DNA from: Clostridia bacterium | GTDB taxonomy: Bacteria > Bacillota > Clostridia > Oscillospirales > CAG-272 | NCBI GenBank assembly: GCA_028720145.1 | Contig: JAQYLJ010000067.1 | Location: forward strand, 27,890-91,889 | Direction of reading: 5' to 3' | Length of the DNA: 64,000 bases | In this document: positions 38,360 to 52,856 of the stretch, piece after piece | Position numbering within the stretch: the stretch's first letter is position 1 | Layout of the letters: each line of letters begins with the position of its first letter | Notes under the pieces: generated by a model | Databases searched by the model: none | What the model saw: only the letters and a program-made list of their open reading frames with translations | What the model was told of the DNA's origin: nothing | Translations under genes and position numbers: made by a program

Positions 38360-38412
38360 TTGGCAAGAAAGAATTTTATTATATAATTTGTATATACCAA
38401 TAATTTGGTATA
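38360..38412 (+). promoter_or_regulatory. promoter of the LRR lipoprotein gene plus a palindromic operator candidate
   Basis: TTGGCA-16-TATAAT (38360-38387), followed by the perfect palindrome TATACCAA-taat-TTGGTATA (38393-38412). It sits in the divergent region shared with the XRE regulator. Confidence 0.5.
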
Positions 38413-38434
38413 CAATTCAATCTTTTGGAGGATT

Positions 38435-39592
38435 ATGATGAAAAAGAGCATTTTCAGACTGACGACAATTCTATTACTGTGCGCGCTCTGTGCGTTACTT
38501 CTGGCCTTTTCCGGATGCGAGGACGAATCAACGAGTGATTCAAGAATACCAAGCACCTCGGACACATCCGGTACAACGAAAAAACCATCAAATAGCGGAA
38601 GCTCTAATACGGCCGACAAACCATCAAATAGCGGAAGTTCCGATACGACCGACAAACCATCGAACAGCGGAAGTTCCAATACGACCGAGAAACCATCGAA
38701 TGAAGAGTCATCCTTCTTCATCATGACGGGTCAGACATTGTCCGGGCTGACAGATGCGGGGAAAAAGCAAACTTCCATTGTAATACCAAGTAAAATCGAC
38801 GGAGTAACGGTTACGGCAATCGGAAGATCGGTATTTCAATACTGCTATTACTTAACCTCGGTTTCCATTCCGAGTAGTGTGACAAGTATTGGAAACTACG
38901 CGTTTTTTCATTGTGAATCACTAAAATCAATTGCAGTTCCAAGTAGCGTAAAGACGATTGGAGAAGACGCATTTTCTTTTTGTTCGGCAATGACATCAAT
39001 AACATTAGTGAACGGAGTCACCGGTATTGGTGAGAGAGCATTCTCTGGATGCAGCAGTCTGAAATCTGTTACCATTCCCGACAGCGTGACCAACATAGGG
39101 GGGAGTGCTTTTTATGGGTGTACCGCAATCAAGCAGGCAACAATGCCAACGATTGCGATTTCCAGTGTTCCGAAAGATTAATTAGAGACGGTGGTACTGA
39201 ATGGCGGGTCAAGCATCCCCAACTTCGCATTTCAATATTGCAGTACATTGAAATCAGTACAAATCCCCGGCACCGTGACGAGCATCGGCATGTTCGCGTT
39301 TGACTATTGCAAAGGATTGACCTCCGTGACCATTCCCGACAGCGTAACAGAAATCGGTGCACACGCGTTCTTTAATTGTTTCGGTCTCACAAGCGTGAAG
39401 ATCGGAAAAGGCGTGAAGAGTATTGGAGGTTACGCATTTAGCGGTTGTAGCAAATTGACATCCGTAACCTTTGCTAACCCGACTGGATGGAAAGCAGGGG
39501 GTACAGCAATGGATGTCAGTGATCCGGCAAAGGCGGCGGCGTATCTGGTTCCCGGATATCCGTATGGGAGCTATGAATGGACTCGCGGATAA
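38435..39592 (+). pseudogene. BspA-type leucine-rich-repeat (LRR_5-like) lipoprotein gene interrupted by an in-frame TAA at 39179-39181
   Basis: Signal peptide plus lipobox (LLCALCALLLAFSGC), then 3.6 tandem copies of KPSNSGSSNT(A/T)(D/E), then LRR units (SVTSIGNYAFFHCESLKSI...). ORFs 38405-39181 and 39191-39592 are in the same frame. The repeat pattern continues straight across the stop (…ISSVPKD*LETVVLNGGSSIPNFAFQYCSTLKSV…). Confidence 0.7.
38582..38713 (+). repeat. 36-bp coding tandem repeat (about 3.6 copies; KPSNSGSSNTAD units) in the LRR lipoprotein linker
   Basis: The units are 38582-38617, 38618-38653 and 38654-38689, plus a partial fourth. Confidence 0.85.
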
Positions 39593-40172: not shown

Positions 40173-40219
40173 GGGGAGAGACTGCGAGGAACAGTCTCTC
40201 CCCCGTTTTCGTTCTTTCC
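40173..40219 (+). terminator. intrinsic terminator after the 39634-40143 gene
   Basis: GGGGAGAGACTG-cgaggaa-CAGTCTCTCCCC (12 bp perfect), followed by GTTTTCGTTCTTT. Confidence 0.8.
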
Positions 40220-40235: not shown

Positions 40236-40264
40236 TTGAAAACCCGCAGGGATTGTTGTAAAAT
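40236..40264 (+). promoter_or_regulatory. promoter of the HK-RR operon (about 185-nt leader)
   Basis: TTGAAA-17-TAAAAT. It is embedded in a 46-nt block repeated at 50658-50704. Confidence 0.55.
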
Positions 40265-40449
40265 GAAGAAAAGAAAGCGTCCGCACGCGCGGGGGAGAAC
40301 CGCGCGGGCACCACGCGGGAACCACGCGGGAGCGAGCAAAAACACGCTGCGGCGAGCAAAAACTCGCGGCATCAAGCGGAAACTGCGGGCGAACAAGCGG
40401 GCGCGACCGACCGTCGGGCGGTGCTTCGGGCAAAACGGGAGAGGGAAAC

Positions 40450-42237
40450 ATGGAAAAGAAATCTGTACTCGCGAAAGTATCGACGATTGCCGCCGTGGTG
40501 GTCGGGTGTACGTTCATCGCGTTCCTGATCTTCATGTTCGCGGCAAACAGCATCGAGATCTTCGCGTCCAGACCGAACGGGGGTTATCGGACGGTCGAGG
40601 ACTACACGCGCACGGATATCGAGACAGAGACCGCGCCCGCGGGGGTCGTGACCGAATACCGCTTCCCCGTCGGAGATACGGTCGACCCCGACGCGCATCT
40701 CGCGTTCTATACGACCCATCAGTACACCGAAGTCCTCATCGGCGGAGAGACGGTCTATCGCCTGACCGCCTCGGAGAACAGCATCACAAAAACGACTGGG
40801 AGCAACTGGGTGATGATCCCCCTGTCCGCCGCCGACGCGGGCAAAGAGGTGACCGTCCGCATCACGCCCGTCTATCGGGACTTTATCAGCAGAAAGACCG
40901 AGTTCCTGCTCGGGAGCGACCTCGCCATCTATGCCGCACGGCTCATGCACGACCTCCCCGAACTGATTTTGAGTATGCTCGCAGTCTTCATCGGCGCGGT
41001 CTTTGTCGTCATCGGGCTATGGAACCTCTTGCGGCGGAAACAGGGCAAGGCGCTCACCCTGCTCGGGATGTTCTCGGTCATGGTGGGACTGTGGCGTTTG
41101 ACCGATACGCGCTTCACGCCGTTCCTCTTTCCCGAACGCCCCGTCTTCGTCTTCTATTTCTCCATCGCGATGCTCATGCTCGGGATTGTCCCGCTGATGA
41201 AGTCGCTCGGGCATCGGTATCACAGTATGTCGAGCAAAATCGTCTTCAACACTTGTTGTATCGGCATTGTGGGGGTCAGTCTCCTACAACTGATTCTGCA
41301 AATCACGGGCGTGATGGATATTCGGGAAAACCTGTTCCTCACGCATATCATGGTCGTCATCGGCGCGATTGCCATCCTCGTCAACTCGATTTATTATAAT
41401 TATAAGTGGAAGAATCGCGGGGACGACGGGAACCGCATCATCAGTTTTCTGCCGTTTGTCTGCGTCGTGGGTGCCATCGCCGATTTGGCGGCGTTCTATA
41501 TCAAAGGGAACTCGGCGGGGCTGGTCTTCACTCTGGCGGCATTCGTCCTCTATACCGTCATCTCGGGGATTCGGATGCTGCTCGATTACGGGGAGCGCGG
41601 CAGACGGCTCGCCGAACAGGAGAAAGAACTTCTAAAAAGCCGTATCGCCATCATGCTCTCGCAAATCAAGCCGCATTTTCTCTACAATTCGCTCAGCTCC
41701 ATAGGCGAGCTCTGTATGGTCGACCCCGCACAGGCGCGGGACGCGCTGACCGACTTCTCCGCCTATCTGCGGAGCAACATGGATTTCATCGACACGAAGG
41801 AATGCGTGCATTTCTCGAATGAACTCAAACACATCGAGACCTATCTGAAACTCGAAAAGATGCGGTTCGGAGACCGTCTGCAAGTCGTGTACGACATACG
41901 GGAGGACAATTTCTTTCTGCCGCCTCTGACGGTCCAACCCCTGGTGGAGAACGCGGTCAAGCACGGCATCTGCGCCAAGCCCGAGGGCGGGACCATCACG
42001 CTCGCCACGCGGCGCGAGGGGGAGCAAATCGTCATCACGGTCTCGGACGACGGTGCCGGATTCGACGAGCGGGAAACCGACGGGAAAGAGGAACGCTCGC
42101 ATATCGGTCTCGCGAATATCAAGAAGCGTTTGGAACTCATGATGGGTGCGACCTTGACCGTCCACAGCGAAAAAGGGGTCGGGACGGTCGTCACGGTGAT
42201 ACTGAACACAAATACTGCGGGGGAGACGGAAGCATGA
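40450..42237 (+). CDS. sensor histidine kinase, LytS/His_kinase(PF06580)-type core with N-terminal extracellular domain + 7TM (7TMR-DISM-like) sensor
   Basis: TM1, then a roughly 150-aa extracytoplasmic segment, then seven further hydrophobic helices. The H-box is QIKPHFLYNSLSSI and the GHKL ATPase shows PPLTVQPLVENAVKHG and DDGAGF...GIGLANIKKRL. Confidence 0.85.
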   Translation: MEKKSVLAKVSTIAAVVVGCTFIAFLIFMFAANSIEIFASRPNGGYRTVEDYTRTDIETETAPAGVVTEYRFPVGDTVDPDAHLAFYTTHQYTEVLIGGETVYRLTASENSITKTTGSNWVMIPLSAADAGKEVTVRITPVYRDFISRKTEFLLGSDLAIYAARLMHDLPELILSMLAVFIGAVFVVIGLWNLLRRKQGKALTLLGMFSVMVGLWRLTDTRFTPFLFPERPVFVFYFSIAMLMLGIVPLMKSLGHRYHSMSSKIVFNTCCIGIVGVSLLQLILQITGVMDIRENLFLTHIMVVIGAIAILVNSIYYNYKWKNRGDDGNRIISFLPFVCVVGAIADLAAFYIKGNSAGLVFTLAAFVLYTVISGIRMLLDYGERGRRLAEQEKELLKSRIAIMLSQIKPHFLYNSLSSIGELCMVDPAQARDALTDFSAYLRSNMDFIDTKECVHFSNELKHIETYLKLEKMRFGDRLQVVYDIREDNFFLPPLTVQPLVENAVKHGICAKPEGGTITLATRREGEQIVITVSDDGAGFDERETDGKEERSHIGLANIKKRLELMMGATLTVHSEKGVGTVVTVILNTNTAGETEA

Positions 42238-43049
42238 ACATATTGGCGCTGGACGACGAGAATCTCGCGCTCGCGGGACTGATGCGGGAGATCGGGACTC
42301 TGTTCCCCGACGCGCACACGGTCGGCTGTCAGAACGCGGAGGAAGCCATGCGGTACGCGAAGCAACTGACCGAGGCGGGCGAGACGCTCGACTATGCCTT
42401 CTGCGATATTGAACTGCCGGGGATCAGCGGACTGGAAGTCGCGAAAATGCTGAAAACCTATTTCCCGAAACTCAAACTGTTTTTCTGCACCGCATACAGT
42501 CAGTTCGCCATCAACGCCTTCGGAATGAAAGCGAAAGGATATCTGTTAAAGCCGATTCGGGCGAAAGACATCGCCGAGGTGCTCGACGAAATGGTCTCCG
42601 ACTGGAAGAGCGAGCCGAGCACGCTGAAAAAAGATATTCGGGTACAGACCTTCGGGGACTTCGAGGTGTTTCTTAACGGGAAACCCCTGCATTTCGAGCG
42701 CGCCAAAGCCAAGGAACTCCTCGCCTACCTCGTCGATAGAAAGGGTGCGGGGGTCACGACCGAGCGGATCGCCGCGGTGTTGTTCTCTGACGAGAACTAC
42801 GGGAAAAAACTCAAAAATACCGTGACGAGGACCGTCTCTTTCCTGAAAGCCGATCTCATCGCGGCGGGGATCGGGGATATTCTCGTCAAGTCGTGGAACC
42901 AGTTGGCGATTGACACGAGCAAAATCAAGTGCGACGCTTACGACTACGAGCGGGGGGATGTCGCGGCGGTCAACGCCTATCGGGGCGAATATATGTTCGG
43001 TTATGAGTGGGCGGAGTTCTCGGTCGGTCGGTTTGACAAGAATCGGTAA
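42234..43049 (+). CDS. response regulator: REC + winged-helix/BTAD-like (SARP/SAPR-type) output domain
   Basis: REC motifs (ILALDDE; FCDIELPGISG; GYLLKP). The output domain starts VQTFGDFEVFLNGKPLHFERAKAKELLAYLVDRKG, the SARP/OmpR-type wHTH pattern. ATGA overlap with the kinase gene. Confidence 0.8.
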   Translation: MNILALDDENLALAGLMREIGTLFPDAHTVGCQNAEEAMRYAKQLTEAGETLDYAFCDIELPGISGLEVAKMLKTYFPKLKLFFCTAYSQFAINAFGMKAKGYLLKPIRAKDIAEVLDEMVSDWKSEPSTLKKDIRVQTFGDFEVFLNGKPLHFERAKAKELLAYLVDRKGAGVTTERIAAVLFSDENYGKKLKNTVTRTVSFLKADLIAAGIGDILVKSWNQLAIDTSKIKCDAYDYERGDVAAVNAYRGEYMFGYEWAEFSVGRFDKNR

Positions 43050-43066
43050 TAATGTTAAAAAATCAT

Positions 43067-43097
43067 AAAAAGCAGGGGCGTTATTCCCCTGCTTTTT
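43067..43097 (+). terminator. intrinsic terminator after the response-regulator gene
   Basis: AAAAAGCAGGGG-cgttatt-CCCCTGCTTTTT. Confidence 0.8.
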
Positions 43098-43138
43098 ATA
43101 TATTTAGACGAAAAAAATACAAAAAATGTTGAAAAATG

Positions 43139-43170
43139 TCGTCCTTTCGTCGTCCTTTGTGATGGATAAT
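43139..43170 (+). promoter_or_regulatory. activator-dependent-type promoter of the giant surface-protein gene: two TCGTCCT heptamers + -10 GATAAT, no -35
   Basis: TCGTCCT (43139-43145) and TCGTCCT (43150-43156) repeat with an 11-nt period. An 8-nt gap (ttgtgatg) then precedes GATAAT (43165-43170). No TTGACA-like hexamer is present. Confidence 0.5.
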
Positions 43171-43231
43171 GAGAGGGAATTCTTATCAATTCATGTAATT
43201 CTTATCAATTATCTATTCGGAGGAATGAATC

Positions 43232-46200
43232 ATGATTGCAAAAACAAACGGAAAATGGAAAGGCATCCTCGGCATGACGCTCATGCTCGCCTGCGTGCTA
43301 TGCCTGACCTTGGTATTGGTGTTTCTGGTACCCGGGACGAAGGCGAGCGCGGCTGCGCCTGTCCGACCGGATGGCAGTTTCACCAATATCAGCAATAGTT
43401 ACGACGCTACAAACTATATGAGTAATGTGTACGGCGGCGAGTATAATTACCTATTGACCGAAGACGGTATTCAGATGAATGCCAATATGGTCATAGCAGA
43501 CCACGCTGTCGTCAACCTGTGCCTGAATGGGCATGATTTGAATTTCGCGTCGGGATATAACATTCAAATCATCGACGGCGTTCTGAATATCTTTGACAGC
43601 GGCAGCGTCAAATCGTTATACGGCGTAGATACCGGAGAGGGTACGGGTGAGGGCACCGAGTTGCTTCCCGTGTTTATCAACGGGTATAACGGTACGCTCA
43701 ATGTCGTCGGCAGCACGGTAGATTCGCTGGGCCCCGTTACGGTCGGCATCTACGGCAGCGTCGGCGTATATGGCGGCGGTAAAATTATCAACAGTTCGCT
43801 CGGCGAGTCCGAAAGCCCCACGGTTAGCAAAGGGATTGCAATCAGTCTTTCGTCCGGCGCCGGCAATCTGACTCTTTCGGACGGGGCAACAATCGGCTAT
43901 TTGTGCGGCGGCGGCACGATCAATGCAAACGGCTATGGGGGCACGGTCAATATTCTGCCGCACGGCGTCTCCACTTTCAAAAATATTTCCGCAGAGAATA
44001 TCAATATGATAGACTCCTCCGGCAATTATTTTATGGAAACGAGCGGCGACGACATTGTGATTACAGCCAATGTAACCTATACGGTCGTTCTGAAAAATGC
44101 CAAACTTGACGAGAGATTCTACGAGACTTCTTTGCTCACGGCCGAGGGCTCGGGCGTTGTGATCACCGAAAACGAATATAACGGCTATAATATCGTACAG
44201 TCGTTTAAGGCAGGCACCGGCACATTCAAGGAATTGATCGTAACGGTAAAAGACGGATACCTTCTGCCCGCGTACTTTGAAGAACAGGCAGGGATTGAAG
44301 ACCCGTATGTATTGGCGTCCGGCTATCAGGGTTTGAAGTTGACCCGCAGCGGGAACTCTTTGTATGTCCGTTGCTCGAATTGGACCGGCGATACGGATAT
44401 AACGGTCAGCGTAGCCGGAACCGAACCTGCCGAAGGCGATGTCGTGTGCGACGGTATCAAGTTTACCACGCCCATCAATCAGTCAGGGGCATGCACCCAG
44501 GGCAGTGGATATGCGGGCGATTGGGGTTCTTCTTATACGGGTCCGGACGGTTCGTTTTCGATACTCAACATGTGCGTCACCTCGACAATGAGTCTCTATC
44601 TGGAAGAAGATGTCGTGATGTTTACGCACGGAAGTATCGGTTCGTCCGGCGATTATACGGCAGAGTATCCTCCCGAGAACATCACGGTAGACCTGTATCT
44701 CAACGGGCATACGCTCACACTGTACGGTTCGGGTGGTGACTCGGCAGGTATCACGGTCTATCCCAATGCGTCATTCAATATTTATGACAGCGCAGCCGGA
44801 ACCGGCAAGATCGTTTTGGAATCGCAAGACGATTCGCAGTATGATTCCGGATTGCTTGATAATCTTTGCGTGCTGGCTGTAAAGGGCGGTACGGTCAATC
44901 TGTACGGCGGTACGCTTTCGGGTTATTTTGAAGCGGTACGATTGGAGCCCTCTGCCAAATATACCCAGACCACCTCGCAGGACGAACTGGGGAATACGAT
45001 TACCACCAAAAAATACAGCACGACCACATTCAGAATGTTCGGCGGAGAACTCAACATTAAGTACACGAAGTATGCAGTCAATATCGTAGCGGCGCTGTAT
45101 GCATCGCAGGATATCACCTATGAGGAAAATGTTATACACAATTTCGCCGCGCACGACATTAAGATTTACGGCGACAGCAAACTGACCGGCGTGATTTCGA
45201 CCACGCAAGATACCGACCTCAACTTCGACGCATACGGTTTCACCGGCGATGCGATCAGCATTCGGGCAAACAAGGCAAGAGAAGGCGAAGTGCTTTGCCG
45301 CCATACGACTGCGAATAAAATCAATTTCGTAAACAAGGGCTTCACCGCCATTGACGACGAAGTGAATGAGGGGAATGTCATCGTGAAGCCCGCGATGGAA
45401 ATCAGTCTCATCCCGGACGAGCACAGCGTGTTCTCCAACGGCTCGGAAAGCGGTATCACCTCGTTCGGCGCTTTGCAGGGGAAGACGCTCGCAGAGGCGG
45501 GACTCCAACTCGTAGCCGACGCCGGATATGAGGCGAAAGAGTACATTTATCAGGCGATCATCGTCGGCGTTGCCGCAGGCGACGACTTCACGGTTCTCCT
45601 GCTCAGCGACGGCTCACTCTGGGCTTGCGGCGGGAACGAATTCGGTCAACTCGGCAACAAGTCTTTCGAGGGTTCCTCCGCTTTCATCCCCATGCAGACC
45701 GAAAGCGGCGCGATTAAGGGCGTCTCGGCAGTCTATGCCAAAGGTCAGATGGTAGTTGCGCGCATGAACGATCAATCTACGATGGCTTGCGGCGACAACA
45801 CCTACGGACAACTCGGCGTGAACAGCACCGAAACGAAGGTCAACTACTTTATGCCTATGGTAGATGCCGAAGGAAAAACGCTTTCCAATGTTGTAAATGT
45901 TTACATGGGTGGCAACCACACCTTCGTACAGAATTTCAACTCGGATACGAGGATATATGATCTCTACGCCTGCGGTAAAAACGACCACGGACAATTAGGT
46001 ATCGGCTCGACGGAAGACAAAAACATTTTAATCAAGGTCACCGTGAGCGAAGGTATTACCGATTATTTCAGTGTCGAGTGCGGCGTGGATTTCACCGTCT
46101 TCAATACATATTGGAACCACAGTTTTATTACCTTTATGGCGGGTAACGGTGCTTTCCTCAGTACCCTGAACGGACATATCTATTCGAGCGGGGATTGGAA

Positions 46201-49200
46201 CTATACCGACATCAATTTGCAGATTACCTCGCAAGACTATACCACACCAACCCAGTTATGTGATGATCCCTACCAGCAAGTACGATTCCGTGTTGGCGAC
46301 GGGTTTATACTGGCGTTTGTGTTTGACTCAATGAATGAGTATAAACTTTTGGCGATGGGCGACAACTCCAAGGGGCAGTGCGGTAACTACGGAGGCGGCA
46401 CGATCAATTCGTTCTCGCCTATGAAAGACGCAAACAATAATGATGTTACGGGCGTTCGCGACATCTATATCGGCAAAGATTTCGTCGTCGTCTTCAAGTT
46501 CGACGGCTCGGTATGGGTGTGCGGTAACAACGAAAACGGACAACTCGGTATCAATAGTTCCGAACCCATTGTCTATGTGCTCACGCAGGTCGCGCAAAAC
46601 CTGGACAACTACTCGAAGTGGGCGGTCGGCGGCAGCCACCTCGTCGCGCTCAAAAACGACGGATCGTTCTATGTTACGGGTAGCAACGCGGCAGGTCAGC
46701 TCGGTTTCGATTCTTCTGTCGGAAAGAAGATGGTTCTCACCGAAAGAAAACTCACAGAAGCGCAACTCACCGCCACTTCGCTCGCAGACATTACCGCAGA
46801 CTTCAACATGGATTTGAGGGTGGTAACCGGACTGCTTGAATTCAACATCAACATGAACGCAAACACCGGCGATCCTGCGGACGACAAGGTAGCAAAAACC
46901 CAACTCCATAAACTCTATGTGAAGGATTTGCCCGACCCCGAATGGGACGAGTTCCACACCTTTGTGGGCTGGTTCACGGCGGCAGAGGGTGGCGAAGCGG
47001 TCACCGACCGGACCCTGACCGAAGACATCGAGATCTTCGCGCATTGGACTCTGAACTATAAGATTACTCTTGACGCGCAGGGCGGTTCGACTTCTTCCGC
47101 ATATCTCGTCACGAAGGACGGGAAACTCACGACCCTTCCCAACGCGAAATACGATGCTTCGCATCTGTTCTTCGCCTGGTACACCGAGAAGAACGGCGGC
47201 GGGGAAGAGGTCACGCTCGATACCGTGTTCACCGCGGACACCACGATTTATGCAAGTTACATCACCGTGGGCAAGACGATTGACCGTATCGAAAAGACGA
47301 CCGAAGGACTTGTCGATACCTATACCATCTATTATACCGACGACACGACTTACTCCTTTACCGTCACCAACGGTTCGAGCGGTTCGGGCAGCGGCTCCAG
47401 CGAAGCGCCTTCTATCGGCGAGAACGGCAACTGGTGGATTGGCGAAACCGATACGGGTGTGAGCGCGAGCGGTACGGACGGTGCGGACGGCGCAGACGGG
47501 AAGACCCCGCAACTCCGCATCAATTCCGAGACGAATATGTGGGAAGTCTCCTACAACGAGGGTTCCACTTGGACCTCGCTCGGCGTGAAAGCGACGGGTG
47601 CCGCAGGCGCAGATGGTGCTGACGGCAACAGCATCGAAAAGGTCGAAAAGATCAGTACCGAAGGGCTGGTCGATACATACCGCATCACCTTCACCGACGG
47701 CTCGACCTTCGACTTCACGGTGACGAACGGTGCTGACGGCACGGACGGCACAAACGGCAAGAAACTGGAAATGCAGATCAATGCCGAGACCAACGAGTGG
47801 GAGTACCGCTATGAGGGCGATACCGAATGGACTTCCACCGGCGTGAAAGCGACCGGCGCGAACGGCTCCGACGGTGCAGACGGGAAGACCCCGCAACTCA
47901 AAATCGGCGAGGACAACTACTGGTATGTATCCTATGACGACGGTGCGACCTGGACGAGCCTGAATGTCAAGGCGACAGGCGAAAAGGGTGCGGACGGCAC
48001 GGACGGCGTGACCCCGCAGCTCCGTATCAATTCTTCTACGAACTATTGGGAAGTGTCGTACGATAACGGCACGAGCTGGAACTCTCTCGGCGTGAAGGCG
48101 ACGGGTGAGGGTGCGGGCTCGGGCTCAGGCACCGACGGCATCACTCCCAAACTCCGTGTGAACGCGGAAACCAATGAGTGGGAAGTCTCCTACGACAACG
48201 GCACGACCTGGGAATCCCTCGGCGTGAAAGCGACCGGCTCTGACGGCGCAGACGGTGCCGATGGTGCAGACGGCAAGAAGATTATCATTCGCATTAACCC
48301 GACCACGGGCGAGTGGGAGTATCAGTACGAGGGCGACACCGAATGGACATCTCTCGGTGTGAAAGCCACCGGCGAAAAGGGTGAACAAGGCGAAAAGGGT
48401 GAAGACGGCAGAGGCATCGTCAAGATTGAAAAGACGAGCACAAGCGGTCTCATCGACACTTACACCATCACCTACACCGATGGCACGACTTCGACCTTCA
48501 CTGTGACGAACGGTCAAGGTGGTGCGAACGGCGCAGATGGCGCGGACGGCGAAGACGGTATCACCCCGCACATTGGCGCGAACGGCAACTGGTTCATCGG
48601 TGAAACCGATACCGGTGTCAAGGCGGTCGGTACCAATGGTACCAACGGCGCAGACGGTGCCGATGGTGCAGACGGCAAGAAGATTATCATTCGCATTAAC
48701 CCGACCACGGGCGAGTGGGAGTATCAGTACGAGGGCAACAGCGAATGGACCTCTCTCGGCGTGAAAGCCACCGGCGAAAAGGGTGAACAAGGCGAAAAGG
48801 GTGAACAGGGTGAAAAAGGCGAACAGGGTGAAAAAGGTGAGCAAGGAGAAAAGGGTGATACCGGTGAAAAAGGCGACGCCGGCAGAGGCATCGTTAAGAT
48901 CGAAAAGACCGGCACTCAGGGTCTGATTGACACCTACACCATCACCTACACCGACGGCACGACCACGACCTTCACCGTGACGAACGGTTCCGACGGCGGC
49001 AGCGGCAGTAACGGTGCCTACGGTGGCAACCCCTTCACGGGTTCCAACGGCAACTGGTGGATCGGCTCGACCGATACGGGCGTGAGCGCGGGCGGCGGTG
49101 TCGATGGAGCGACTCCGCAGTTCCGCGTCAATGCCGATACAAAGGAATGGGAAGTGTCGAACGATAACGGCACGACCTGGCTCTCTCTCGGCGTGAAAGT

Positions 49201-49378
49201 CATTGAACAACAGGTCGGGGAGAATGGTGAAAACACCACGCTCGCGACGACCGTCGGCTGTTCCGCGGCACTCGTGGCAGTGGTCATCGCCATCGTCATC
49301 ACCATTCTCGCCATTCGCGATAAGAAACGGATGCAGAAAGTTCTGGACTCCATGAAGAACGGCGAGGATAAAGAATGA
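43232..49378 (+). CDS. giant (2048 aa) mosaic cell-surface protein: signal peptide, beta-helix-like region, RCC1 repeats, Listeria-Bacteroides (Flg_new-like) repeats, collagen-like G-X-Y linkers alternating with three short module types, C-terminal TM anchor
   Basis: GGAGG RBS and signal peptide (LMLACVLCLTLVLVFLV…ASA). Six or seven RCC1 signatures are present (GGNEFGQLG, GDNTYGQLG, GKNDHGQLG, GDNSKGQCG, GNNENGQLG, GSNAAGQLG) at about 45560-46720. Two HxFxGW(F/Y)T…W units lie at about 46955-47260. Repeated modules span 47279-49200. The TM is AALVAVVIAIVITILAI, followed by a basic tail. Confidence 0.9.
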   Translation: MIAKTNGKWKGILGMTLMLACVLCLTLVLVFLVPGTKASAAAPVRPDGSFTNISNSYDATNYMSNVYGGEYNYLLTEDGIQMNANMVIADHAVVNLCLNGHDLNFASGYNIQIIDGVLNIFDSGSVKSLYGVDTGEGTGEGTELLPVFINGYNGTLNVVGSTVDSLGPVTVGIYGSVGVYGGGKIINSSLGESESPTVSKGIAISLSSGAGNLTLSDGATIGYLCGGGTINANGYGGTVNILPHGVSTFKNISAENINMIDSSGNYFMETSGDDIVITANVTYTVVLKNAKLDERFYETSLLTAEGSGVVITENEYNGYNIVQSFKAGTGTFKELIVTVKDGYLLPAYFEEQAGIEDPYVLASGYQGLKLTRSGNSLYVRCSNWTGDTDITVSVAGTEPAEGDVVCDGIKFTTPINQSGACTQGSGYAGDWGSSYTGPDGSFSILNMCVTSTMSLYLEEDVVMFTHGSIGSSGDYTAEYPPENITVDLYLNGHTLTLYGSGGDSAGITVYPNASFNIYDSAAGTGKIVLESQDDSQYDSGLLDNLCVLAVKGGTVNLYGGTLSGYFEAVRLEPSAKYTQTTSQDELGNTITTKKYSTTTFRMFGGELNIKYTKYAVNIVAALYASQDITYEENVIHNFAAHDIKIYGDSKLTGVISTTQDTDLNFDAYGFTGDAISIRANKAREGEVLCRHTTANKINFVNKGFTAIDDEVNEGNVIVKPAMEISLIPDEHSVFSNGSESGITSFGALQGKTLAEAGLQLVADAGYEAKEYIYQAIIVGVAAGDDFTVLLLSDGSLWACGGNEFGQLGNKSFEGSSAFIPMQTESGAIKGVSAVYAKGQMVVARMNDQSTMACGDNTYGQLGVNSTETKVNYFMPMVDAEGKTLSNVVNVYMGGNHTFVQNFNSDTRIYDLYACGKNDHGQLGIGSTEDKNILIKVTVSEGITDYFSVECGVDFTVFNTYWNHSFITFMAGNGAFLSTLNGHIYSSGDWNYTDINLQITSQDYTTPTQLCDDPYQQVRFRVGDGFILAFVFDSMNEYKLLAMGDNSKGQCGNYGGGTINSFSPMKDANNNDVTGVRDIYIGKDFVVVFKFDGSVWVCGNNENGQLGINSSEPIVYVLTQVAQNLDNYSKWAVGGSHLVALKNDGSFYVTGSNAAGQLGFDSSVGKKMVLTERKLTEAQLTATSLADITADFNMDLRVVTGLLEFNINMNANTGDPADDKVAKTQLHKLYVKDLPDPEWDEFHTFVGWFTAAEGGEAVTDRTLTEDIEIFAHWTLNYKITLDAQGGSTSSAYLVTKDGKLTTLPNAKYDASHLFFAWYTEKNGGGEEVTLDTVFTADTTIYASYITVGKTIDRIEKTTEGLVDTYTIYYTDDTTYSFTVTNGSSGSGSGSSEAPSIGENGNWWIGETDTGVSASGTDGADGADGKTPQLRINSETNMWEVSYNEGSTWTSLGVKATGAAGADGADGNSIEKVEKISTEGLVDTYRITFTDGSTFDFTVTNGADGTDGTNGKKLEMQINAETNEWEYRYEGDTEWTSTGVKATGANGSDGADGKTPQLKIGEDNYWYVSYDDGATWTSLNVKATGEKGADGTDGVTPQLRINSSTNYWEVSYDNGTSWNSLGVKATGEGAGSGSGTDGITPKLRVNAETNEWEVSYDNGTTWESLGVKATGSDGADGADGADGKKIIIRINPTTGEWEYQYEGDTEWTSLGVKATGEKGEQGEKGEDGRGIVKIEKTSTSGLIDTYTITYTDGTTSTFTVTNGQGGANGADGADGEDGITPHIGANGNWFIGETDTGVKAVGTNGTNGADGADGADGKKIIIRINPTTGEWEYQYEGNSEWTSLGVKATGEKGEQGEKGEQGEKGEQGEKGEQGEKGDTGEKGDAGRGIVKIEKTGTQGLIDTYTITYTDGTTTTFTVTNGSDGGSGSNGAYGGNPFTGSNGNWWIGSTDTGVSAGGGVDGATPQFRVNADTKEWEVSNDNGTTWLSLGVKVIEQQVGENGENTTLATTVGCSAALVAVVIAIVITILAIRDKKRMQKVLDSMKNGEDKE
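48773..48889 (+). repeat. collagen-like G-X-Y tract (13 triplets, mostly GEK/GEQ; 18-bp tandem unit) inside the giant gene
   Basis: GEKGEQGEKGEQGEKGEQGEKGEQGEKGDTGEKGDAGRG. The paralogous position at about 48371-48415 has only 5 triplets. Confidence 0.9.
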
Positions 49379-50526
49379 AAGTACTGACAGTATTGCTGTT
49401 CATCGGCTTGGCGGTGCTGTGCGGCTCATTCGGGTATCTGCTCTATCTGACCTTTCACAAAACCGACGACAAACCGAAAAGCGGGCATGTCGCTACGGAA
49501 AAACAAAAGGATAGTGTTTCGCAAAAGACTTCGGGAACGGTCGTTCCCGAAGTCGCCCCCGCCGCGGGCAAAAAGCCCCCTGTGGTACTGCCGCCCGTCG
49601 GGGACGAGAGCGAAAACGGGGTGAGACAATGGGACGCGGCGAAAAATCAATACCTGTTTTTCCTCTATAACCGCAGTTTCACCGCGCGGCTGATTCAGGC
49701 GGACGACGAGACGAAATCCTACTATTCTGTTCTAAAGAACGAGATTCTCTCCTACGGGAAAATCGGGAGCCGCATCAGTTGGAAACACGAACTGTTCCGT
49801 GTGAGCAGAGAGCCGGTCATCCGCATGAAATTCCGCGGCAAGACCTTGTGCCTGTATTTTGCGTTGACCCCCGCGGACTACGCGCTCACCAAATACAAGG
49901 TCGAGGATGCGTCCGATGCGGCGATGAACGCCGAACTGCCCTGTCTCTATCGCATCTCCAACGACCGCAGATGCGCTTACGCAAAGGATCTCATCGCCGC
50001 GGTCATGGCGAAGTACGGGCAGACAAAGATGAAGACCCTCGACACCGATTATGTCGCTCATTATCCGTATGAGGCGAACGAACCGCTGATTGCCCGCGGG
50101 CTCATCAAGCTGGTGTCGCAATCGGACGCGCAAAGCGGCTCGGAATCCGTGCCGCCCGTTTCGGAACCGCAGGCAGACGAAGAAGAACTCTCGGCTGCGA
50201 TGGCGTCGCCCGACCCGAATCTCGCAGATATCGACTATGTGGATGAGGGAGATACGGACTTTGTGCCGACCGCGGACACGCCCGGCGTGGAGGTCATCGG
50301 CATCGTGTGGCCGGAAAAGAGAAAGAACAACAAGATTTATCGCTACGACCCGAACGGAGAGACCATCTCCGCAGGCGATATCGTACTTGTACCCTCTTTT
50401 GATGCGGTACACGGGAAAGAGGTCGTCCGAAAGGTCGCGGTGGCGAAGGGTAATTACCGAGAAGGCCCCGAAAAATTGCCAAAGACCCTGAAAAAACTCA
50501 TCAGCGTCGTGACTCGTAAGAGTTGA
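49375..50526 (+). CDS. hypothetical membrane-anchored protein, translationally coupled to the giant surface-protein gene
   Basis: ATGA start/stop overlap and an N-terminal TM (VLTVLLFIGLAVLCGSFGYLLYL). No catalytic motif is recognised. A terminator follows at 50540-50579. Confidence 0.7.
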   Translation: MKVLTVLLFIGLAVLCGSFGYLLYLTFHKTDDKPKSGHVATEKQKDSVSQKTSGTVVPEVAPAAGKKPPVVLPPVGDESENGVRQWDAAKNQYLFFLYNRSFTARLIQADDETKSYYSVLKNEILSYGKIGSRISWKHELFRVSREPVIRMKFRGKTLCLYFALTPADYALTKYKVEDASDAAMNAELPCLYRISNDRRCAYAKDLIAAVMAKYGQTKMKTLDTDYVAHYPYEANEPLIARGLIKLVSQSDAQSGSESVPPVSEPQADEEELSAAMASPDPNLADIDYVDEGDTDFVPTADTPGVEVIGIVWPEKRKNNKIYRYDPNGETISAGDIVLVPSFDAVHGKEVVRKVAVAKGNYREGPEKLPKTLKKLISVVTRKS

Positions 50527-50539
50527 GACGCGCACGGCG

Positions 50540-50579
50540 GCGGGCAGACGCGAGTCTGCCCGCTGTCTTTTGCCTTTTT
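50540..50579 (+). terminator. intrinsic terminator ending the giant-protein operon
   Basis: GCGGGCAGAC-gcga-GTCTGCCCGC, followed by TGTCTTTTGCCTTTTT. Confidence 0.8.
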
Positions 50580-50822: not shown

Positions 50823-52856
50823 ATGAGAGGGGGCGAGGAGATGAGACGAGAGACGAGCTTACCGGAACTGCTCGCACCGGCAGGGAGTGAAGAGGCGTTT
50901 TACGCCGCGCTCGCAGCGGGAGCGGACGCCATCTATCTCGGGGGCAAGCAGTTCAGCGCACGCGCCTATGCCGAGAACTTCGATGACGAGACCCTCGCCC
51001 GCTGTCTCGCCGCCGCCCATGCACGTGGGGTCAGGGTCTATGTCACGGTGAACACCCTGCTCTATGAGCCCGAACTCGCGGACGCGGTGCGGTACGCCGA
51101 GACCCTGTGCCGTCTGGGCGTGGACGGCATGATTACGACCGATGTCGGGCTCGCGGACTATCTGCGGGAGCATCTGCCCCAGTTGCCTCTGCACGCGTCC
51201 ACCCAACTCTCGCTTCACAGCACGGCGGGCGCGGTCGAGGTCTCCGACCTCGGGTTTACCCAAATCGTGCTCGCGCGGGAACTCTCGGAAGAAAATATCC
51301 GCTCGGCGGTCGAAGGGGCACCCGCTCCCGTCGAAGTCTTTATTCACGGGGCGCTCTGCGTCTCCCACTCGGGACAATGCCTGTTTTCCTCGCTCGTCGG
51401 CGGGAGGAGCGGGAACCGCGGAGAGTGCGCGCAACCCTGCCGCCTGCCTACGAAAGACGGGAGTTATCCCCTCAGTTTGAAAGACCTGTGTCTTGCCCGC
51501 CATATCCCCGCTCTCATTGATGCAGGGGTGGCGTGTCTCAAAATCGAGGGACGCATGAAACAGCCCGCGTATGTCGGGCGGGTGACCGCCATCTACCGCC
51601 GTCTGCTCGACGAGAGACGCGCCGCGACCGACGCGGAGTATCGGGAACTCGAAGGCATCTTCTCGCGGAGCGGGTTCACCGACGGTTATTTCACGGGGAA
51701 AACCGAAAGTGCCATGACGGGCGTCCGACGGGAACAGGATAAAGATGAGAGCCGCGCCGCGGTCTATCAGCCGCCGTGCCTGCCCCCTGTTCCCCTGACA
51801 GCGGAGGCGGAAATTGTCGAGGGCAGACCCGCTACCTTGTGTCTTACCCGCCCCGATGGGGCAAATATCCGCGTGACGGGGGAGACCCCCGCGCCCGCGC
51901 GCTCGTCCCCCCTGACCCCCGAGGGAGTCAAGACCCGACTCGGGAAATGCGGCGGGACCCCCTATCTCCTCCCGCCCGAGAACATTCGTCTCACCCTCGG
52001 CGAGGGACTGAACCTTTCGCCCGCTTCTTTGAACGCCTTGCGCCGCGCGGCGCTGGACGGGCTCTCGGGCGCACGAGACGAGATTCCTGCGCTCCCCATC
52101 CCCGAGAAGGTGACGGCGGGATTCGCGGGACCCGAGAACAGCGCGCTGTTTTTCTCTGCCGCGACCTATGCCGCCCTCGGCGAGGAACGCGACTTCTTCT
52201 CGGTGGTGTTCGTCCCGCTTTGGGAGTACGACACGCTCGAAAATCCGCCTGTCGGCGTATGGCTTCCACCCGTGATTACCGACAAAGAGGAGCCGGAAAT
52301 ACGGCATCTCCTTGACAAAGCGAAGGCGCGCGGAGCCACTCACGCTCTCGTGGGGAACCCGGGACAGGTGAAGCTCGCCCGCGAGGCGGGACTGACCGTC
52401 TTCGGTGACTTCCGACTCAATATACTGAACAGTCGCGCCGCCGCCTACTGGCATCGGCACGGAGTCTCGGACGCGGTGCTCTCGCCCGAACTCACGCCCG
52501 CAGGGATGCGGGACATCGGGGGGCGCGCCATCGTCTACGGGCGCATTCCTCTCATGCTGACCGAGCGGTGCTATATGAAACTCTTCGGCGGGTGCGTCAG
52601 ATGCGGGGAAGTCCCGCTCACCGACCGCACGGGGACGGAGTTCCCGCTCGTGCGGATTCCCCCACACAGAAATATGATTCTCAACAGCGTACCGACCTAT
52701 GTCGGGGACAGACGCGATCTCATCCCCGCGGGGGTACGCGCCCACTTCATCTTCACAACCGAAACGCCGGACGAATGCCGTCGGGTCCTCGCCGCCTACC
52801 GCCGCGGGGAACCCATCTCGGGCGCGTACCGCCGTTTCCCCAAATCCAGGAGGTAA
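50823..52856 (+). CDS. U32-family peptidase-like protein (family now linked to RNA hydroxylation)
   Basis: PELLAPAGSEEAFYAALAAGADAIYLGGKQFSARAYAENF and the ExxxxC region (GECAQPCR). 677 aa. The start is either ATG 50823 or ATG 50841. Confidence 0.85.
   Translation: MRGGEEMRRETSLPELLAPAGSEEAFYAALAAGADAIYLGGKQFSARAYAENFDDETLARCLAAAHARGVRVYVTVNTLLYEPELADAVRYAETLCRLGVDGMITTDVGLADYLREHLPQLPLHASTQLSLHSTAGAVEVSDLGFTQIVLARELSEENIRSAVEGAPAPVEVFIHGALCVSHSGQCLFSSLVGGRSGNRGECAQPCRLPTKDGSYPLSLKDLCLARHIPALIDAGVACLKIEGRMKQPAYVGRVTAIYRRLLDERRAATDAEYRELEGIFSRSGFTDGYFTGKTESAMTGVRREQDKDESRAAVYQPPCLPPVPLTAEAEIVEGRPATLCLTRPDGANIRVTGETPAPARSSPLTPEGVKTRLGKCGGTPYLLPPENIRLTLGEGLNLSPASLNALRRAALDGLSGARDEIPALPIPEKVTAGFAGPENSALFFSAATYAALGEERDFFSVVFVPLWEYDTLENPPVGVWLPPVITDKEEPEIRHLLDKAKARGATHALVGNPGQVKLAREAGLTVFGDFRLNILNSRAAAYWHRHGVSDAVLSPELTPAGMRDIGGRAIVYGRIPLMLTERCYMKLFGGCVRCGEVPLTDRTGTEFPLVRIPPHRNMILNSVPTYVGDRRDLIPAGVRAHFIFTTETPDECRRVLAAYRRGEPISGAYRRFPKSRR

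Follow-up and report, generated by a model that had tools for sequence, protein, structure and literature searches.

A tandem 11-bp repeat in place of a -35 box as the probable operator of a receiver-fused, SARP-like regulator before a giant surface-protein operon of a gut Clostridia bacterium

Our analysis of a 64-kb stretch of DNA from a Clostridia bacterium (the window, in whose coordinates all positions are given) points to a response regulator, its DNA site and its target encoded side by side. The 22-bp element at 43138-43159 is probably the operator of the regulator encoded immediately upstream, and thereby the core of a -35-less, activator-dependent promoter of the giant operon at 43232-50526. 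Judged from its sequence conservation, the box is very probably the docking site of this neighbouring SARP-like response regulator; the element is best described as a SARP/OmpR-type activator site that replaces the -35 box and is worked by a receiver-fused mini-SARP in gut Clostridia.

The window has a G+C content of ~58%, its intergenic DNA is AT-rich, and nearly all DNA runs containing the sequence are pig-gut metagenomes. A terminator (40173-40203) precedes a canonical sigma-A-type promoter on the plus strand (TTGAAA-17-TAAAAT, 40236-40264, 10/12 matches), which serves a plus-strand operon of two genes: a 595-aa sensor histidine kinase (40450-42237; His_kinase PF06580 and HATPase_c) and a 271-aa response regulator (42234-43049; receiver [REC] domain, OmpR-type winged helix and a ~45-aa tail resembling the first 2-3 helices of the SARP BTA domain), the start codon of the second overlapping the stop codon of the first. 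The operon is closed by a strong intrinsic terminator on the same strand (43065-43099), with 14-bp arms, a 7-nt loop and a T-run. Because this terminator separates the regulator gene from the gene that follows, the latter must have its own promoter in 43100-43231. That gene, the predicted target (43232-49378, plus strand), has a GGAGGA ribosome-binding site 7 nt 5' of its ATG (43219-43224, plus strand) and encodes a giant surface protein of 2048 aa, with a signal peptide, RCC1-like repeats, DUF4988 repeats, collagen-like repeats and a C-terminal membrane anchor. Its stop is overlapped by the start of a plus-strand gene for a 383-aa membrane protein (49375-50526; N-terminal membrane helix, no Pfam family), so the pair is probably translationally coupled, and a terminator lies 3' of it (50536-50567). 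The 383-aa gene was considered as a paralogue of an equally long ORF at 129-1280, a relationship rejected at an E of 2.6, and a 90-aa ORF overlapping the promoter (43126-43398) was taken as spurious. Directly 3' of this operon with its collagen-like repeats lies a U32 peptidase gene (50823-52856; collagenase-type, DUF3656) with its own promoter-like site. BspA-type leucine-rich-repeat ORFs (LRR_5, 38405-39592), 5' of the two-component operon, appear split across consecutive frames and may represent a disrupted surface-protein gene.

Between the terminator and the giant gene, the heptamer TCGTCCT occurs at 43139-43145 and at 43150-43156, i.e., with a start-to-start distance of 11 nt. The exact repeat extends beyond the heptamer, with a repeat finder returning the 10-mer GTCGTCCTTT in two copies of 100% identity and an 11-nt period. 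The distal copy (43138-43147, plus strand) forms the upstream half-site and fills the -35 slot; the proximal copy (43149-43158, plus strand) forms the downstream half-site, and its heptamer, ending at 43156, is followed by 8 nt (43157-43164, TTGTGATG) and then by a GATAAT -10 hexamer (43165-43170, plus strand). The hexamers located 16-18 nt 5' of this -10 (CCTTTC, TCCTTT and GTCCTT) match TTGACA at only 1/6, 1/6 and 0/6 positions, the -35 slot falling inside the distal repeat, and a consensus scan of 42900-43400 returned no sigma-70 promoter on the plus strand. A TTGAAA at 43130-43135 was ruled out as a -35, since its 29-nt spacer places it too far from the -10. In contrast to this -35-less target promoter, the promoter of the kinase-regulator operon has its -35 and lacks the regulator box, which occurs once only in the window. 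The initial annotation had described TCGTCCT twice at 11-nt phasing, a proximal copy 8 nt before GATAAT and no -35 hexamer, all of which we confirm, with a repeat longer than described; the SARP promoter geometry that it recognized agrees with the published definition (PMC10936776).

The exact tandem heptamer pattern has one occurrence in the 64 kb, against 0.00 expected from 100 shuffles, and is thus unique in the window rather than scattered through it, whereas single heptamers are near chance level (19 seen, 12.5 expected). When up to 2 mismatches are allowed, the tandem is not significant in the window alone (1 versus 0.81 expected); the significance of the box therefore rests on the exact tandem together with comparative data.

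For the comparison, 37 genomic loci with regulator homologues (53-75% identity) were assembled, covering many Clostridia and several bacterial families. In most of these, inspection by eye of the DNA 3' of the regulator stop codon revealed a tandem YGTYGTCCTTT followed by TATAAT. A degenerate form of the pattern (at most 2 mismatches) gave 38 matches in 258 kb of regulator loci, versus a shuffle mean of 1.6, and 37 sites once overlapping registers were collapsed. The -10 begins exactly 8 nt after the proximal heptamer in 34 of these 37, mostly as TATAAT, with one further site at 6 nt and one at 7 nt. Information content is limited to the two 11-bp units and the -10, with unconserved flanks; in each unit, G-t-Y-G-T-C-C leads into a weaker TTT, and the positions of the -10 that the search left unconstrained are 80-97% conserved across the family sites. 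At L006:2955-2990 and L017:4856-4890 there are three consecutive 11-bp units, the last of which is still 8 nt from the -10.

Since the pattern was derived from the same loci, two independent controls were added. In a motif-free test, exact 7-mers containing both G and C were sought as repeats at offsets of 5-25 nt downstream of the regulator gene; an offset of 11 was found in 18/36 loci and every other offset in 0-3. In a control on real DNA, comprising 714 kb of unrelated metagenome loci that carry a chance 17-mer, a -10 at 8 nt accompanied 1/148 pattern matches. The exact 17-mer TCGTCCTTTCGTCGTCC had been tried as a regulon finder in metagenome contigs and was rejected: its matches (at least 120, mostly environmental) are chance occurrences, with a -10-like hexamer at 8 nt in 1/125 of those in the fetched metagenome loci. 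On these sequence comparisons, box, 8 nt and -10 make up a conserved cassette that is specifically tied to the regulator family. The proposal that regulator, site and target belong together, put forward from the window sequence, thus gains support from phylogenetic footprinting.

The regulator itself carries a receiver domain (PF00072, E 5e-14) whose residues D8, D58, T86 and K106 are invariant across 54 homologues, D58 being the phospho-acceptor, and whose best NCBIfam scores are to LytR/BtsR-type receivers. With an acceptor Asp in the receiver, a winged-helix output and an adjoining histidine kinase gene, it has the constitution of a two-component response regulator of the OmpR/PhoB family. 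Its effector domain is less readily placed by sequence. Pfam calls REC only, Trans_reg_C being weak (E 0.035) in the window regulator while PF00486 is called in homologues of 54-60% identity; BTAD gives no Pfam match in the window regulator even at an E of 10. Sequence searches against the PDB (phmmer/hmmsearch) returned DrrB (E 0.02) and EmbR (E 0.73), with no SARP signal by sequence alone, so the class of the effector domain was settled only by structure comparison. The AlphaFold model of the full-length protein has a pLDDT of 82.6 with a confident winged helix; against the PDB, Foldseek matched it best to OmpR/PhoB-family regulators, and to AfsR chains over ~160 columns. An AF2 model of residues 131-271 (pLDDT 87, pTM 0.83) was compared separately. 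For these C-terminal 141 residues, the six best PDB matches are AfsR (8hvr, 8k60) and EmbR (2ff4, 2fez), aligned over 143-148 columns that take in the whole domain including the tail (E 5e-6 to 6e-4; top match 8hvr_I, AfsR, E 5e-6, 143 columns). PhoB comes next (E 1.7e-3, 86 columns), and the plain PhoB, ArlR and SaeR domains align over 84-104 columns with an E of 1.7e-3 or worse. Model and matches (PhoB, ArlR, AfsR and EmbR) thus agree on an OmpR-type winged helix, as in the SARP family, with a predicted fold that resembles SARP domains more than it does the effector domains of plain OmpR/PhoB regulators.

A full BTA/BTAD domain comprises ~150 aa and seven helices; here, only ~45 residues with 2-3 helices follow the winged helix, and because the BTA domain is incomplete the regulator should not be filed as a bona fide SARP. 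The tail is nonetheless near-invariant in the family over residues 230-271 (C233-D-A-Y-D237, G251, Y253 and W259-A260, i.e., CDAYD...G.Y...Y.WA). In AfsR, the DNA-binding domain is the base on which the first three BTA helices (of seven) stand (PMC10936776). As modelled, the window regulator is a receiver joined to an OmpR-type DNA-binding domain and a BTA stub, with a SARP-like fold short of a full SARP. The initial description of the upstream gene as REC-SARP-like fares well on these data, with AfsR and EmbR on top in Foldseek and with homologues at 56-57% identity named 'two-component SAPR family response regulator' by JGI. Its nearest homologues were found in MAGs of Coproplasma, Borkfalkiaceae and other Clostridia. 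A profile of the effector domain retrieved 3,133 cluster representatives at 50% identity, 1,803 of them at E ≤1e-10, indicating a large and uniform family, mostly of ~265-275-aa proteins with the domain at the C terminus. The JGI name is that of COG3947, with the architecture REC, wHTH and BTAD; the window regulator has the first two and a partial BTAD, and its family is uniformly ~265-285 aa with a truncated BTAD. Architectures of the COG3947 type are catalogued but are not known to have been studied, and in the literature searched we found no characterized member, DNA site or regulon of the REC-SARP-like family.

Box sequence and regulator sequence vary together. Regulators with the recognition helix VTR(T/I)VSFL (the window, L001, L002 and L004) adjoin boxes with C at the second heptamer position (GTCGTCC), whereas all others have A, T or S at the position of this Arg (R200 in the window regulator) and boxes reading GT(T/G)GTCC. 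Three Arg-type homologues that had no part in forming this rule (P0010, P0011 and P0002) were each correctly predicted to have a C-type box (3/3), which reads GTCGTCC for P0010 and P0002 and GTCGTAC for P0011. The corresponding arrangements at L160, L163 and L164 are, respectively, GTCGTCCTTTCGTCGTCC, 8 nt and TAAAAT; GTCGTACTTTAGTCGTAC, 8 nt and TAAACT; and GTCGTCCTTTCGCCGTCC, 8 nt and TATAAT. Contact of an Arg with the G of the C:G pair would make chemical sense. Because a single clade probably unites the Arg-type proteins, the co-variation counts as one evolutionary event, not seven.

We infer binding by the window regulator, an activating sign, dependence on phosphorylation, the transcription start and the polymerase contacts, in a mechanism that would run as follows. 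The partner kinase (40450-42237) would phosphorylate the regulator at D58, upon which two regulator molecules would bind side by side in head-to-tail orientation, one per 11-bp repeat, each via the recognition helix of its winged helix. Were transcription to start at 43177 or 43178, 7-8 nt 3' of GATAAT, the box of 22 bp would extend from -39/-40 to -18/-19, a predicted placement equal to that of the AfsR afs box. The bound dimer would make up for the absent -35 through contacts with sigma region 4 and with the core of RNA polymerase ('sigma adaptation'), and polymerase of the sigma-A type would then open the GATAAT -10, activating the giant surface-protein operon. The activation contacts may differ from those of AfsR, because the BTA domain that makes many of the AfsR polymerase contacts is mostly absent.

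This mechanism is modelled on well-described systems. In SARP target promoters, the direct repeats are spaced by 11 or 22 bp, and 8 bp separate the 3' repeat from the -10; on the afs box, spanning -40 to -19, two AfsR protomers sit side by side and touch each 11-bp unit over its first 8 bp, AfsR engaging sigma region 4, the beta-flap tip, the beta' zinc-binding domain and the alpha C-terminal domain (PMC10936776). The window promoter shares with SARP promoters (AfsR/afsS; ActII-ORF4, RedD and DnrI; EmbR by structure) the 11-bp period and the 8 bp to the -10, both of which are conserved in the family, as well as a box in the place of the -35, which from the predicted start would lie at about -40 to -19, and units in which the first 7-8 bp are conserved and the last 3 are not. 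The proteins are also alike, the window effector domain being nearest to AfsR and EmbR in structure, including the helices that pack on the winged helix. The differences are likewise plain: SARPs are actinomycete proteins, whereas this one belongs to a Clostridia bacterium of the pig gut; it has an N-terminal receiver domain and a cognate histidine kinase; it has 2-3 of the seven BTA helices in ~45 residues, with no Pfam BTAD; its predicted target is a giant surface-protein operon instead of an antibiotic cluster; and the GTYGTCCTTT sequence is unlike SARP boxes.

The other relative is the PHO box, in which 7 conserved and 4 variable bases recur on an 11-bp period with the core CTGTCAT (PMC4415409). 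As with PhoB/PhoP, a regulator composed of a receiver and a winged helix would be activated by a partner kinase, class II promoters of this kind have two 11-nt direct-repeat units bound head-to-tail in place of the -35, and the family core TTGTCCT resembles the E. coli CTGTCAT. Unlike PhoB, the window regulator carries an extra, conserved, SARP-like helical tail at its C terminus, its partner kinase is a LytS/YesM-like His_kinase (PF06580), its receiver scores best against LytR/BtsR-type receivers (NCBIfam), and the spacing to the -10 follows the SARP rule. Because PHO boxes share the design, 'SARP-style' is a refinement within OmpR-type tandem recognition and not a separate principle; the 8-nt spacing and the effector-domain fold favour the SARP variant of that recognition.

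This kinship raises the possibility of a generic OmpR/PhoB class II site, PHO-box-like and not SARP-specific, with the tail a lineage-specific decoration that has no role in activation. We hold this to be unlikely. It would account for the two 11-nt units (7 conserved plus 4 variable) and the likeness of the cores (PMC4415409), for a full-length model closest to OmpR-family regulators, and for Pfam seeing REC only in the window and Trans_reg_C in homologues; however, the C-terminal half fits AfsR/EmbR over 143-148 columns rather than the 84-104 of plain domains, and with better E values, the near-invariant tail corresponds to the BTA helices that pack on the AfsR DNA-binding domain, and 8 nt to the -10 is the SARP rule. 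Quite unlikely in our estimation is a regulator that acts as a repressor, with the tandem operator lying over the -35 and spacer of a promoter that fires on a (near-)perfect -10 alone. Here, the TATAAT consensus in many family members, often preceded by TG, could allow some -35-independent activity, and the box overlaps a region that RNA polymerase must occupy. Yet the TG directly abuts the hexamer, unlike that of an extended -10 (TGn), the lack of a -35 is itself a conserved family trait, and the fixed 8-nt spacing (34/37) is a hallmark of polymerase-docking activators, where repressor operators tolerate variable placement. The same box also stands before putatively autoregulated kinase and regulator genes, and AfsR and EmbR, the closest structural relatives, are activators.

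Recognition of the box by a different factor, be it a paralogous regulator or an alternative sigma with TTGTCC as its -35, would make the neighbouring position incidental. The near-identical boxes of paralogous systems in one MAG (L011 and L013) do make cross-binding possible; against this, regulator homologues from several bacterial families have the box beside them in most of the 37 loci, and its sequence tracks the recognition helix of the adjoining regulator. Nor would a sigma factor have its -35 in two copies at 11-bp phase; these would leave spacers of 9 or 20 bp to a -10 that has the housekeeping consensus. We therefore regard a different factor as very improbable. That the repeat is a functionless product of chance or slippage has a likelihood close to nil: when up to 2 mismatches are tolerated, the tandem does not reach significance in the window by itself, but 0.00 exact tandems are expected, and box and spacing, unlike the flanking bases, are kept between regulators only 53-75% identical.

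The operator reading is also informed by the genes that lie behind the box in other loci. An RCC1-repeat giant secreted protein recurs there in L004 and L036, the downstream product in L001 shares N-terminal sequence with the giant RCC1-repeat protein, and L163 has a giant DUF4988 protein. GGDEF genes follow the box in L002 and in L160, the latter continuing with an EAL gene, a RelA/SpoT-domain gene follows it in L012, and further loci have other secreted proteins. Kinase-like ORFs of ~600 aa, judged by length and N-terminal sequence only, are found behind the box in L013, L018, L021, L029 and L034, and in L033 and L034 the box precedes the regulator's own gene. Positive autoregulation and neighbouring effector genes are typical of two-component regulons, and a box before kinase or regulator genes in other loci is as expected for autoregulated two-component systems.

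Two contigs of a single Hominilimicola MAG (L011 and L013) encode paralogous regulators, each beside the near-identical box TGTGTCCTTTTGATGTCCTTTG, which raises the question of whether the paralogues keep their specificity or share a common regulon; because these paralogues share almost the same box, the adjoining regulator need not be its sole binder. Behind the box in L008, L014, L018 and L037 are ~120-aa ORFs resembling stand-alone receivers (N terminus MLILLVENN...), their sequences hinting at a phosphate sink or a branch of the pathway. Beside a regulator-family member at L020:1450-1700 is a small peptide with a double-glycine-type leader (…ELKKVSGG…), and downstream of the regulator in L022 and L027 is a look-alike, by N-terminal sequence only, of HlyD-type secretion proteins; these neighbours suggest candidate bacteriocin-type rather than surface-protein loci.

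More broadly, we give an even chance to the proposal that the locus is one instance of a large type of regulon in gut Clostridia, in which phosphorylation-controlled mini-SARPs (REC, winged helix and the first BTA helices; at least ~1,800 clusters at 50% identity) use one cassette (GTYGTCCTTT twice, 8 nt, TATAAT and no -35) to switch on giant surface proteins, c-di-GMP and (p)ppGpp enzymes and their own two-component genes. Were this so, SARP-style sigma adaptation would not be an actinomycete speciality, a BTA stub would suffice for it, and the paralogous systems of a genome would converge on a shared box. Members of this two-component family are very common among uncultured gut Clostridia, and for them the locus offers a candidate triad of regulator, operator and target that is ready for experiment. 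With the consensus box, regulons can be predicted across thousands of genomes; the targets seen near it are adhesin-like giant surface proteins, enzymes of the GGDEF and RelA/SpoT types and the genes of the systems themselves. It further suggests that -35 replacement of the SARP type can come under receiver-domain control with a minimal activation domain, which bears on SARP-RNA polymerase contacts and on portable kinase-controlled promoters for Firmicutes.

Transcript data bear on the predicted start, which from the position of the -10 would lie at 43177-43180 on the plus strand. The 5' region is covered by one true metatranscriptome (X27), in the form of low-depth assembled contigs only. One contig matches the genome from 43180 downstream, its 10 preceding letters agreeing at 6/10; a second, from a variant strain, covers 42969-43150 and runs through the terminator. 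These contigs are compatible with a start near 43177-43180 and give a weak hint of it. Across four pig-gut DNA runs, there was no strain variation in 43120-43231, at a diversity too low for this to carry weight.

The leader between the -10 and the ribosome-binding site contains a second direct repeat on the plus strand, AATTCTTATCAATT at 43178-43191 and 43197-43210, with a 19-nt period (2 matches in the window, 0.15 expected). It is present in 4/4 strains checked and absent from the orthologous promoters, i.e., specific to the window, and may be an operator for another factor or a recent duplication. A structured 5' UTR leader was rejected (fold z = -0.11), as was a known RNA element, Rfam giving only sub-threshold matches, on the terminator hairpin. 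A further tandem repeat with an 11-nt period, GAACCACGCGG in 3.2 copies at 40297-40331, lies within the long, G+C-rich leader (~40270-40449) that separates the kinase start codon from the canonical promoter; the repeat's sequence is unrelated to the GTCGTCC box.
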